Source: Actinomycetes bacterium
GTDB taxonomy: Bacteria > Actinomycetota > Actinomycetes > Propionibacteriales > Propionibacteriaceae
DNA length: 64,000 nucleotides
Direction: 5' to 3'
Assembly: GCA_030426725.1 (NCBI GenBank)
Contig: JAUHXZ010000002.1
Coordinates: 5,673 to 69,672, forward strand
Shown here: positions 6,257 through 47,092 of the stretch, piece after piece
Position numbering within the stretch: the first letter of the stretch is position 1
Layout: each line of letters opens with the position of its first letter
Position numbers and translations under genes: made by a program
Notes under the pieces: generated by a model
Database searches by the model: none
Told to the model about the DNA's origin: nothing
The model's input: only the letters and a program-made list of their open reading frames with translations

Positions 6257-6296
6257 ACTCCCCTCCGCGCGGCCGCCTCAACCCGGGCCCACGCCC

Positions 6297-6720
6297 GACG
6301 CCAGCCATACCGCTCGACGCCTGCGCAATAGCGCATGCAACCCACAGCAAGGCCGGCGTCTGCGACTCAGGAGCGCACAGCCGGCGGCCAACAGGATGAG
6401 GTGGCGAGGGGTGGGGACGGGGCAGGTTGGGTGGGCGTCGCGACCGGACCGGCGCGAAGCGCCCGTCCCGGGAGCGTGGGCGGCCCGGCCATCAGCATGA
6501 GGGTGGCGAGGGGTGGGGACGGGGCAGGTTGGGTGGGCGTCGCGATCGGACCGGCGCGAAGCGCCCGCCCCGGGAGCGTGGGCGGCCCGGCCATCAGCAT
6601 GAGGGTGGCGAGGGGTGGGGACGGGGCAGGTTGGGTGGGCGTCGCGATCGGACCGGCGCGAAGCGCCCGTCCCGGGAGCGTGGGCGGCCCGGCCCCACCC
6701 CTCGACACCCGGGCTGGGCA
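6297..6720. repeat. Dispersed structured repeat, copy A (leader domain + 3 tandem 102-bp units)
   Basis: Units start at 6390, 6491 and 6593; homologous to 41481-41710 and 46568-46999. Confidence 0.92.
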
Positions 6721-6808
6721 ACAACTGGGCGGTAGGGCGGCGGAGGGCACAGTTTCGACGCGACGGCGCTTCGCGCCGGTCGGCTCAACCCACGGCGACG
6801 CGGGGGCG

Positions 6809-40065: not shown

Positions 40066-41451
40066 ATGACCACCATCTGCTGGTTTCGACGAGGGCTCCG
40101 CCTGGACGACCATCCCGCCCTCAGTGCGGCCGCGGCCGGCGGCCCCGTGGTCCCGCTGGTGATCCTCGACCCCGCGGAGGCCGCGGCGCGGCCGGCGTCG
40201 GCGGAACGGCAGGCACTCGCTCTCCGCCCGCTCGACGAGGCCCTGCGCCGGCACGGCAGCCGGCTCGTCGTGCGGCGCGGCCAGCCGAGGGAGGTGCTCC
40301 GGGACCTCATCGCGGAGACCGGGGCGACGGTCGTCCACACAACGGCGGGGTTCCCGTCGGCCTCCGATGACGACCCGGCGGCCGCGGTGCAGGCGTGCGG
40401 GGCCGAGCTGCGCGTCCATCCTCCGGGGGACCTGGCGGAGCGGGGGTCGGTCCTCACCGGCGCCGGCGGAACGTTCAAGGTGTTCTCGCCGTTCTTCCGG
40501 GCGTTGAAGCGGGTCGACGTCGCGGCTCCGATCGGGGTGCCCGAACTCACCGCCCCGGCGTCGTGGCCGGGCTCGGAGCCGCTCGACTGGTCCGAGGCGC
40601 GGGCGTCGATGAGGCACGGCTGGGATCCCGTGGCCCGCGCGGCCCGGCCCGGCGCAGACGCGGCCCTCGGGTCGCTGGAGGAGTTCCTCGACGGCCCGGT
40701 GGCGGACTACCCGGAGCACCGGGATCTGCCGGGCCTCGCCGCCACCTCGGGGCTCTCGGACGCGCTCGCCGTCGGGGAGATCAGCGCCCGGAGCGTCTGG
40801 CACCGCTGCCTGCCGGCCTGGCGCTCGGGGGCGCCGGGCGTCGAGGACTTCCTGTCCGAGCTCGCCTGGCGGGAGTTCGCGCGGGACCTGCTGCACGACT
40901 TCCCGGAGCTCGCGACCCGGTGCTGGCGGCCCGAATGGGAGCACTTCCCCTGGGAGGGGGACTCCGACGCGGCGGAGGCATGGCGGCGTGGCGAGACCGG
41001 CGTCGAGATGGTCGACGCCGGGATGCGTGAACTGTTCGCCACCGGCCGGATGCACAACCGCGTGCGGATGATCGCCGCCAGCTACCTGACCAAGCACCTG
41101 CTCACCGACTGGCGCGTCGGGCTGGCGTGGTTCGAGCAGACGCTCACCGACTGGGACGCGGCGTCGAACGCGATGAACTGGCAGTGGGTGGCCGGCTGCG
41201 GCCCCGACGCATCGCCGTTCTTCCGGGTCTTCAACCCGGACACGCAGGCGAAGAAGTTCGACGGCGACGGCGCCTACCGCCGCTACTGGCTCTCCCCCGA
41301 CGGGGCCGGCGCCCGACTCTTCGCCGAGGCGGCGCCGAGGTCCTGGGGGGTCGACCCTTCCGCCCCGCGCCCCGAGCCGCTGGTGGACCTGTCGGCCGGC
41401 CGGGCCCGCGCGCTGGCCGCCTACGAGTCGCTGCGGGCCGCCAACTCCTGA
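40066..41451 (+). CDS. phrB: Deoxyribodipyrimidine photolyase (class I-like)
   Basis: WFRRGLRLDDHPAL, TSGLS, ELAWREF, GRMHNRVRMIAASYLTK, DWR, NWQW, PFFRVFNP. Confidence 0.9.
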   Translation: MTTICWFRRGLRLDDHPALSAAAAGGPVVPLVILDPAEAAARPASAERQALALRPLDEALRRHGSRLVVRRGQPREVLRDLIAETGATVVHTTAGFPSASDDDPAAAVQACGAELRVHPPGDLAERGSVLTGAGGTFKVFSPFFRALKRVDVAAPIGVPELTAPASWPGSEPLDWSEARASMRHGWDPVARAARPGADAALGSLEEFLDGPVADYPEHRDLPGLAATSGLSDALAVGEISARSVWHRCLPAWRSGAPGVEDFLSELAWREFARDLLHDFPELATRCWRPEWEHFPWEGDSDAAEAWRRGETGVEMVDAGMRELFATGRMHNRVRMIAASYLTKHLLTDWRVGLAWFEQTLTDWDAASNAMNWQWVAGCGPDASPFFRVFNPDTQAKKFDGDGAYRRYWLSPDGAGARLFAEAAPRSWGVDPSAPRPEPLVDLSAGRARALAAYESLRAANS

Positions 41452-41480
41452 CCTGCCCGTCTTCCGTAGGTCTCATTCCC

Positions 41481-41710
41481 GACGCCAGCCATATGTCGCA
41501 ACGCCTGCGCAATTGCGCTGGCATCGCGCACCAAGACTGGCGTCCACCGGTGATGAGCGCCCAACCGCCGGCCAACAGCATGAGGGTGGCGAGGGGTGGG
41601 GCCGGGGCAGGTTGGGTGGGCGTCGCGAATGGAGAGGGCGCGTGTCGCGCACTCTCCAGAGCGTGGGCGGCCCGGCCCCACCCCTCGACACCCGGGCCTG
41701 GGCACAGTTC
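41481..41710. repeat. Dispersed structured repeat, copy B (single unit)
   Basis: Same leader and arms as copies A and C; different apical hairpin. Confidence 0.9.
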
Positions 41711-41806
41711 TCCTGACCGGCTCCGGCTCAAACGGCGGATCGCAAGCGGGATCGGCGTGTCGGGGGTTGGGGCTGCACCCCGGGGTTGGCTACAGTCAAC
41801 GGCCGT

Positions 41807-46428: not shown

Positions 46429-46520
46429 GTTGAGTCTAGCACGCTCAACTTGAGTAATCATGGATTGAGTCTAGCACGCTCAACCGGCATCGCCAACACC
46501 TTGAGCCGGGCACGCTCAAC
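46429..46520. promoter_or_regulatory. Three HAIR (HspR operator) inverted repeats
   Basis: TTGAG-N9-CTCAA at 46430-46448, 46465-46483 and 46501-46519; matches CTTGAGT-N7-ACTCAAG. Confidence 0.88.
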
Positions 46521-46567: not shown

Positions 46568-46999
46568 GACGCCAGCGCTCCTGTCCGACGCCCGCGCCAT
46601 TGCGCTGGCATGGAGCAGCAAGGCTGGCGTCCACAAAGTGATGAGCACCCACCCGCCGCCACCAGCACGAGGGCGTCGAGGGGTGGGGCCGGGGCAGGTT
46701 GGGTGGGCGTCGCGACCGGGCCGGCGCGAAGCGCCCGTCCCGGGAGCGTGGGCGGCCCGGCCACCAGCATGAGGGCGTCGAGGGGTGGGGCCGGGGCAGG
46801 TTGGGTGGGCGTCGCGACCGGACCGGCGCGAAGCGCCCGTCCCGGGAGCGTGGGCGGCCCGGCCACCAGCATGAGGGTGGCGAGGGGTGGGGCCGGGGCA
46901 GGTTGGGTGGGCGTCGCGACCGGACCGGCGCGAAGCGCCCGTCCCGGGAGCGTGGGCGGCCCGGCCCCACCCCTCGACACCTGGGCCTGGGCACAGTTC
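46568..46999. repeat. Dispersed structured repeat, copy C (leader domain + 3 tandem 102-bp units)
   Basis: Units start at 46661, 46763 and 46865. Confidence 0.92.
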
Positions 47000-47092
47000 C
47001 GCTGGCGGGCGGACGTCGGTTTCGACGCGGGGACGTCGCAGAGCGACGTCGCCCGGCTCACCCGCGGGGTGGCCGGGCCCGACCGGCGAGGA

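Follow-up and report, generated by a model that had tools for sequence, protein, structure and literature searches.

The 64,000-nt stretch analysed here (the window, C70:5673-69672; C numbers denote contigs of the genome from which it comes) contains three intergenic copies of a structured repeat, which raises the question of whether this repeat is a mobile DNA element, a family of structured RNAs or a DNA structure maintained for its host. The first-pass annotation of the window had described a two-domain element of about 230 nt at three loci and proposed either a multicopy noncoding RNA or a non-autonomous mobile element whose functional strand is the minus strand. The results reported below indicate that the copies probably belong to a family of non-autonomous, hairpin-forming mobile DNA repeats, of the kind represented by repetitive extragenic palindromes (REPs), bacterial interspersed mosaic elements (BIMEs), BOX elements and miniature inverted-repeat transposable elements (MITEs). 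The family is previously undescribed and its kind is already known, being a BIME- or BOX-like mosaic with a MITE-like core, here called M2. The host genome is a 2.92-Mb draft of 70% GC in 144 contigs, 99.9% complete, from the Tessaracoccus lineage of the Propionibacteriaceae, as its best protein matches indicate.

Sequence inspection and pairwise blastn comparison (E from 1e-40 to 1e-154) agree that copies A (6297-6791), B (41481-41722) and C (46568-47063) are homologous and share one orientation. Both domains first described are recognizable. Domain 1, here M1, has a stem GACGCCAG / CTGGCGTC enclosing a GCGC-N4-GCGC hairpin with the loops AATA, AATT and CATT, and domain 2, consisting of M2 and its closing arm, has an outer stem of 23 bp interrupted by one G.A mismatch, a bubble with GTGGGCG on either side, and an apical hairpin. 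The length of about 230 nt initially assigned to the element was too short, the M2end tail and the M3 hairpin having been overlooked. The M2 region of copies A and C is a tandem array with a period of 102 nt, with three units in each versus a single unit of this type in copy B, and in copy A the 3' arm closes the final M2 unit only. The M3 variant of copy A is also found at C26 and C92, and the apical hairpin variant of copy B recurs at C15.

Searches of the host genome by blastn and iterated nhmmer, with one profile each for M1, M2, M2end and M3, identified at least 52 clusters in place of the three loci originally recorded (39 M1, 36 M2, 26 M2end and 23 M3), with a family total of 9.1 kb or 0.31% of the genome. 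The number of clusters is a lower bound, several of them abutting contig ends. The order of modules is constant, [M3]-M1-M2(x1-3)-M2end-M3(x0-2); every module is also found alone, and truncated copies occur. Every cluster is intergenic, with 16 in convergent, 22 in tandem and 6 in divergent contexts, and the clusters are enriched between convergent genes, with no orientation rule in tandem contexts, where five clusters are co-oriented with the genes and nine are anti-oriented. Rfam searches of the whole window at the gathering score, and of copies B and C at E<=1, returned chance-level matches only and no publication describing the family was found, so that the novelty suggested for the repeat stands.

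M1 is a 64-nt module in which the 9-mer GACGCCAGC is present in two direct and two inverted copies around the 12-mer GCGCAATTGCGC, all 14 occurrences of which in the host genome lie within M1. It has 10-bp terminal inverted repeats and its nhmmer score is equal on both strands. None of its 12 consensus pairs shows a compensatory double change among 32 copies, and the flanks of solo M1 copies display no consistent target-duplication pattern. M2 is a rod. Its outer stem of 20-23 bp is followed by the conserved step CCGGGG/CCCGG and by an internal loop that is asymmetric, with CAGGTTGGGTGGGCGT in the 5' strand and GTGGGCGG in the 3' strand; beyond this loop come a short helix that covaries and an apical hairpin, which occurs in the host genome in two unrelated, equally paired versions. 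Complementary arms of 20-23 bp are present in all 42 M2 copies that were folded. In tandem arrays only the last unit is closed, and the leader and the 3' arm share a CCGGCC microhomology at which the junction is located. A private junction variant, GCGAGGGTGACG, is common to the arrays of two units at C7 and C58, suggesting that M2 arrays are copied as wholes. A single outer stem is common to all M2 copies of the host genome, which suggests that the element spread together with its stem, as part of a mosaic. M3 is a 45-nt hairpin module, GTTTCGACGCGGGGACGTCGCAGAGCGACGTCGCCCGGCTCAACC, located 3' of M2end in most full copies.

Evidence that the M2 core moves as DNA comes from a second genus, Micropruina, in which a search beyond Tessaracoccus with the M2 covariance model (R1) detected the motif at two to three copies per genome. 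In a Micropruina metagenome-assembled genome (MAG; L154 1503-1610), an M2-type element lies in frame within dnaE2, the gene for an error-prone polymerase, and adds about 36 amino acids to a variable loop of the protein. The empty dnaE2 site of M. sonneratiae (L171 2533-2548) is an intact, perfect 16-nt palindrome, GCGGCGGATCCGCCGC, that contains GGATCC, and the filled site reads GCGGCGGATCC[GGCTGCCCGGG...core...CCCGGGCAGCC]GGATCCGCCGC. Comparison of the two sequences implies that the element entered at the dyad of the palindrome and duplicated its centre. Part of the outer stem is therefore target sequence, which accounts for M2 outer stems that are variable yet perfect; each Micropruina copy has its own, perfectly complementary outer stem. 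Of the features that characterize MITEs, M2 has terminal inverted repeats, and a target duplication is seen in Micropruina dnaE2 only.

Four Micropruina genomes and one further MAG (L155, L156, L157, L166 and L301) also have an M2-type element between gyrB and gyrA. The gyrB-gyrA spacer is ~330 nt long with the element versus ~25 nt without it in another Micropruina MAG (L300). The element-free genome lacks ~300 nt, which is more than the element alone, and the spacer was rejected as a second clean empty site for this reason; it documents presence and absence, with no clean junction or target information. One Micropruina genome has a second M2 copy 11 kb away, near dnaN and proximal to oriC. 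The gyrB-gyrA spacer of the host genome contains no element.

The distribution of the family is narrow. In a comparison of 68 genomes of the genus, ranked for closeness by GltX identity, M2-like copies were found in only three, T. lapidicaptus IPBSL-7, Tessaracoccus sp. MC1679 and an 'Arachnia sp.' MAG. These are the species closest to the host genome by GltX (84-86%), and the identity of their M2-like copies is 77-84%. In exact-pattern scans, the M2 core was confined to genomes of the Tessaracoccus lineage and a single Micropruina MAG. The photolyase-helicase spacer (site B) measures 334 nt here; its orthologues in Tessaracoccus sp. MC1679 and in two related MAGs measure 58-60 nt. For the gltX-hsp20 spacer (site C), three relatives have ~30-50 nt, and T. 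lapidicaptus has a fragment there that resembles the 3' arm of M2. The insertions at sites B and C are lineage-specific. Across all lineages the internal-loop sequences of M2 are invariant and 16 of its 28 consensus pairs show double compensatory changes.

These observations are consistent with the following scheme. The M2 core would be the oldest and best-defined module, two invariant G-rich loop strands surrounding a variable apical hairpin, and would integrate in a MITE-like manner at the dyad of existing palindromes, duplicating their centre and acquiring an outer stem that is partly target-derived. In the host genome M2 may have been fused with M1, a palindrome, and with the terminal hairpin M3 of multicopy, selfish DUF222-HNH (REP13E12-type) genes, after which the fused mosaic could have spread as one unit to ~50 sites between genes. 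Local amplification of the 102-nt unit would have occurred through slippage or through unequal exchange at the CCGGCC microhomology. Movement would take place as DNA through an enzyme that acts in trans and recognizes the extruded hairpin with its loop, and whole mosaics may be copied by transposition and/or by repair of nuclease-made breaks, with no dedicated host function. The mobile-element proposal of the first-pass annotation is thus supported as far as a non-autonomous, MITE-like repeat is concerned (multicopy, intergenic, lineage-specific and with a filled/empty pair).

Several points weigh against the interpretation as mobile DNA. No enzyme is tied to the element: RAYT and TnpB are both missing, and so is an autonomous copy whose ends match. 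A cognate autonomous insertion sequence (IS) with ends of the form TGCCCGRGGCAGG was not found among the nhmmer partial matches in this draft of 144 contigs, a scan for the 16-base half-site over the genome collection gave chance matches only, and the only transposase near the modules belongs to an IS110-family element without M2-type ends. The sole nucleotide-level filled/empty pair is from another genus, and the length of its duplication is ambiguous (2-12 bp) because the target is itself palindromic. Sister species lack the insertions at sites B and C, and no clean target duplication is readable at the window copies, the flanks of which are too diverged from those of the sister species. In DNA quasipalindromes, compensatory change can arise without selection by template-switch correction; since DNA palindromes covary in this way, the covariation of M2 cannot tell RNA from DNA. 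The invariance of the loops over two genera would equally fit a functional RNA, and so would the excess of G.U pairs on one M2 strand (151 versus 34) and the copy kept in the gyrB-gyrA spacer of four Micropruina genomes.

The possible involvement of a nuclease arises from the association with DUF222-HNH genes. The gene encodes a protein of 502 amino acids with a PF02720 match (E = 1.4e-35) and an HNH motif, and the host genome has five to six close copies (81-88% amino-acid identity) in addition to diverged ones. The window copies contain no DUF222-HNH open reading frame (ORF), their gene-bearing relatives being elsewhere in the host genome. Each close copy has the same layout, which in gene orientation is M1, 9-35 nt, inverted M3, a ~100-nt leader, the gene, 27 nt, M2, M2end and M3; in one copy the 3' side is M1-M2-M2end instead. 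The gene is hence flanked on its two sides by M3 modules, of the type found in copy C, in inverted orientation to each other, and mosaics without the gene share the same outer parts. The mosaic might derive from the HNH-bearing unit by simple internal deletion, but the M1-M2 linker has no convincing match to the 3' end of the gene. One HNH copy (C124:8967-10444) gives matches in two overlapping frames (amino acids 1-101 and 101-502), and its sequence would be compatible with either a frameshifted pseudogene or a programmed frameshift.

Such an arrangement could reflect a nuclease-driven system in which the modules are cis-acting ends or docking sites of DUF222-HNH genes, the hairpins are cut and break repair copies the mosaics with or without the gene, as an HNH counterpart of REP/REPIN-RAYT. 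In addition to the uniform bracketing in the host genome, the HNH gene is multicopy (4-13) in all six congeners tested, and in T. lapidicaptus the HNH genes are flanked by inverted arrays of M3-like units, GGTTGAGCCGG..hairpin..TCGAAGCC. This explanation is nevertheless considered unlikely. No M1 or M2 lies within 1.5 kb of the HNH genes of congeners, and the M2 copies of the sister species are not beside HNH genes. HNH genes also occur in genomes free of M1 and M2, so that their co-occurrence with these modules cannot discriminate between the explanations. No conserved palindrome shared with M1 was found inside the HNH genes (four copies), and the association may reflect mobile genes that landed or were retained in repeat clusters, as for IS110. 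It is possible, if rather doubtful, that the invariant M2 loop (CAGGTTGGGTGGGCGT / GTGGGCGG), borne on a hairpin with freely varying stems, and the M3 hairpins are the recognition structures of an undescribed mobility system in which a structure-specific nuclease, most plausibly DUF222-HNH, cuts extruded palindromes and repair copies the modules, gene-bearing or gene-free, into other palindromes. If true, this would be an HNH-based analogue of REP-RAYT and would explain how actinobacterial 13E12 repeats move.

Two further associations with mobile genes were noted. An IS110-family element (C54:190-1476, L173; ORF 435-1433 with PF01548 and PF02371) is located exactly between M3 and M1, which are adjacent at four other loci. 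The sequence CCGGCTCA(A)TCAG is present on both sides of this element, and its ~245-nt leader could encode a predicted bridge-type RNA directed at the M3 tail. T. lapidicaptus IPBSL-7 has just two M2 rods, which lie in inverted orientation on either side of an ORF of 103 amino acids of the GIY-YIG type (L141 5458-6280 / L094 757-1579); this locus also holds tandem 45-nt hairpin units and resembles a small nuclease cassette bounded by hairpin repeats. The GIY-YIG gene was rejected as a mobiliser of M2, as it is absent from the host genome (with 36 M2 units) and the 'Arachnia' MAG and present in M2-free congeners. Of the flanked transposase or nuclease genes that the first-pass annotation proposed to look for, the bracketed DUF222-HNH genes and the IS110 between modules were found, and RAYT and TnpB were not.

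A structured noncoding RNA family, either of small RNAs or of cis-acting stabilisers or terminators in 3' untranslated regions, would treat the loops as putative protein- or RNA-binding sites and the copy number as secondary. The invariant loops and covarying stems over four Tessaracoccus-lineage genomes and Micropruina agree with such a role, as does the copy kept in the gyrB-gyrA spacer of the four Micropruina genomes. In each of the 42 M2 rods the G-rich (+) strand gives the more stable fold, the mean advantage being 8.3 kcal/mol, with the excess of G.U pairs given above, and the M2 copies beside nuclease genes are 3' of the gene in sense orientation. The earlier observation that G-U wobbles form only on the minus strand therefore does not generalise, and a functional minus strand is unsupported by the M2 folds for domain 2 and meaningless for domain 1, which is a near-perfect palindrome. 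Signals in the opposite direction also exist. Copy B, which folds far better than shuffles as RNA on either strand and as DNA, is as a whole more stable on the minus strand (RNA z = -3.6 on the plus and -6.1 on the minus strand relative to shuffles; DNA z = -5.8), the G-rich strand of the Micropruina gyrB-gyrA copies is antisense to gyrBA, and in 16 of 18 M1-M2 composites of the host genome the G-rich strand opposes the majority gene strand within +-15 kb. This last bias may relate to replication and was not reproduced in 8-kb windows of relatives (11 versus 10).

An RNA function is distinctly unlikely in view of the mixed orientation relative to flanking genes, including the antisense placement at gyrB-gyrA, and of the dnaE2 copy, which is read through in frame as protein. 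Copies are truncated, tandemised, mosaic or nested; M1 lacks compensatory pairs; copies B and C show neither a sigma-70-type promoter nor an intrinsic terminator; and Rfam contains no matching family. The repeats are also not simple terminators, as had been recognized from the location of two copies behind minus-strand genes and one behind a plus-strand gene.

Host roles have been reported for the BIMEs of E. coli, including binding of gyrase or nucleoid proteins and the formation of domain boundaries. By analogy, the present elements might be a gyrase or nucleoid-protein site or a domain boundary kept by selection, a role with which the mosaic BIME-like architecture, the invariant loop motifs and the Micropruina copies in the gyrB-gyrA spacer and near dnaN would be consistent. 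It is very unlikely, given that most species of the genus lack the element, that it is missing from the gyrB-gyrA spacer of both the host genome and one Micropruina genome, and that close relatives have between 2 and 36 copies.

Membership of the REP/REPIN-RAYT system, or descent from IS200/IS605 as PATE or omega-RNA remnants, which intergenic hairpin repeats, some of them inverted pairs around a nuclease gene, could bring to mind and which the first-pass annotation had also proposed, can be dismissed almost entirely, as the 99.9%-complete assembly has no match to the Y1/RAYT domain (PF01797; the search was positive in 6 of 14 control genomes), no TnpB zinc-ribbon domain (PF07282) scores above cut-off in the host genome or the three carrier genomes, and the modules are 45-110 nt long with no GTAG-type head, versus the palindromes of 20-40 nt expected of REP/REPIN.

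Mobile DNA thus remains the preferred interpretation of the window copies, the features of which are listed in Table 1. Copy A is flanked by the 3' end of a gene for a GH4 glycosidase (minus strand) and by the start of infA (minus strand); copy B is situated between photolyase and helicase genes (both plus strand), and copy C between the 3' end of gltX (minus strand) and the operator region of hsp20 (minus strand). Upstream of hsp20, at 46430-46520, there are three inverted repeats TTGAG(T/C)-N7-GCTCAA that resemble HspR (HAIR-type) heat-shock operators; these operators are also conserved upstream of hsp20 in four congeners, and copy C is just distal to them. The photolyase gene (40066-41451) has three matches in Propionibacteriaceae at 69-71%, followed by dozens in Paracoccus (Alphaproteobacteria) at 60-66% amino-acid identity, a pattern that suggests horizontal transfer between Propionibacteriaceae and Paracoccus. 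Spurious ORFs of 100-150 amino acids cross the repeat arrays on both strands (6278-6750 and 46568-47000), an example being a minus-strand ORF of 148 amino acids at 6278-6724 with a triplicated peptide. In annotation, the window copies should be masked as repeats and not recorded as RNA genes or spurious ORFs.

Table 1. Modules of the three repeat copies and the stretch specific to site B, in window coordinates (TRF, Tandem Repeats Finder)
Feature	Position	Strand	Description and evidence
Copy A M1	6297..6360	+	64-nt nested palindrome GACGCCAGCC-N12-GACGCCTGCGCAATAGCGCA..-N12-GGCCGGCGTC; nhmmer C70:11969-12032
Copy A M2 x3	6385..6694	+	Units ~6399-6488, 6497-6590, 6599-6693; TRF x3.0, 97%; nhmmer
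Copy A M2end	6687..6745	+	Closing 3' arm CCCGGCCCCACCCCTCGACACCC and conserved tail; nhmmer C70:12359-12417; alignment
Copy A variant M3 hairpin	6752..6791	+	GTTTCGACGCGACGGCGCTTCGCGCCGGTCGGCTCAACC; alignment with other M3s; under nhmmer threshold
Site B stretch without counterpart in sister species	41454..41762	+	~309 nt here vs ~10 nt there
Copy B M1	41481..41544	+	nhmmer C70:47153-47215
Copy B single M2 rod and M2end	41580..41722	+	Alternative apical hairpin GGAGAGGGCGCGTGTCGCGCACTCTCC; nhmmer, fold
Copy C M1	46568..46631	+	nhmmer C70:52240-52302
Copy C M2 x3	46658..46966	+	Units 46668-46760, 46769-46862, 46871-46964; TRF x3.0, 98%; nhmmer
Copy C M2end	46959..47012	+	nhmmer C70:52631-52684
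Copy C M3	47019..47063	+	Hairpin GGGGACGTCGC-AGA-GCGACGTCGCCC then GGCTCA; nhmmer C70:52691-52735

Small hairpin repeats interrupt genome assemblies, give rise to rearrangements, draw in insertion sequences and can change how neighbouring genes are expressed; they are poorly catalogued in high-GC Actinobacteria. The present family offers a clear modular grammar, an insertion at a palindrome dyad at nucleotide level, including the in-frame case of dnaE2, and a physical link to DUF222-HNH genes. If this link is causal, the family would provide a handle on a widespread selfish nuclease family; if not, it would represent an ordinary lineage-specific repeat expansion.

Among known systems, the BIMEs of E. 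coli and its relatives, which are built from REP (palindromic unit) sequences, are likewise intergenic hairpin mosaics with a fixed grammar and variable numbers of units at tens of loci. Elements of the IS110 and IS1397 type insert in REPs, and insertion sequences target both families, as illustrated here by IS110 between M3 and M1. The present family differs in having no sequence similarity to BIMEs, no GTAG head, no RAYT and longer modules (45-110 nt), and in the MITE-type insertion of its M2 core, which duplicates a palindromic target, and its association with DUF222-HNH genes. The BOX elements of Streptococcus pneumoniae (boxA-boxB(n)-boxC) have a comparable A-B(n)-C layout in which the middle part is repeated in tandem a varying number of times and pairing of the outer parts closes a long stem-loop, as in M2 x1-3 closed by M2end. 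Their sequence and host phylum are unrelated, and the present family adds an upstream M1, a downstream M3 and the tie to a nuclease gene.

The REP13E12 repeats of Mycobacterium tuberculosis contain 13E12-family genes with DUF222 and HNH domains (Gordon et al. 1999, as cited in PMC10589994). Both systems place a multicopy DUF222-HNH gene in repeated noncoding DNA. The window copies differ in being gene-free, and flanking M1, M2 or M3 modules are not known to be described for REP13E12, the mycobacterial flanks not having been compared.

The palindromic elements of Rickettsia and the Correia elements of Neisseria resemble the M2 core in being small and noncoding, with perfect terminal inverted repeats and a target duplication, and the in-frame insertion of the M2-type element into a tolerated loop of the dnaE2 product recalls the Rickettsia elements. 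In contrast to these MITEs, the present family has no known parent IS, its target is the dyad of a palindrome and not TA, its internal loop is conserved rather than its termini, and its spread in the host genome probably took place within a larger mosaic.

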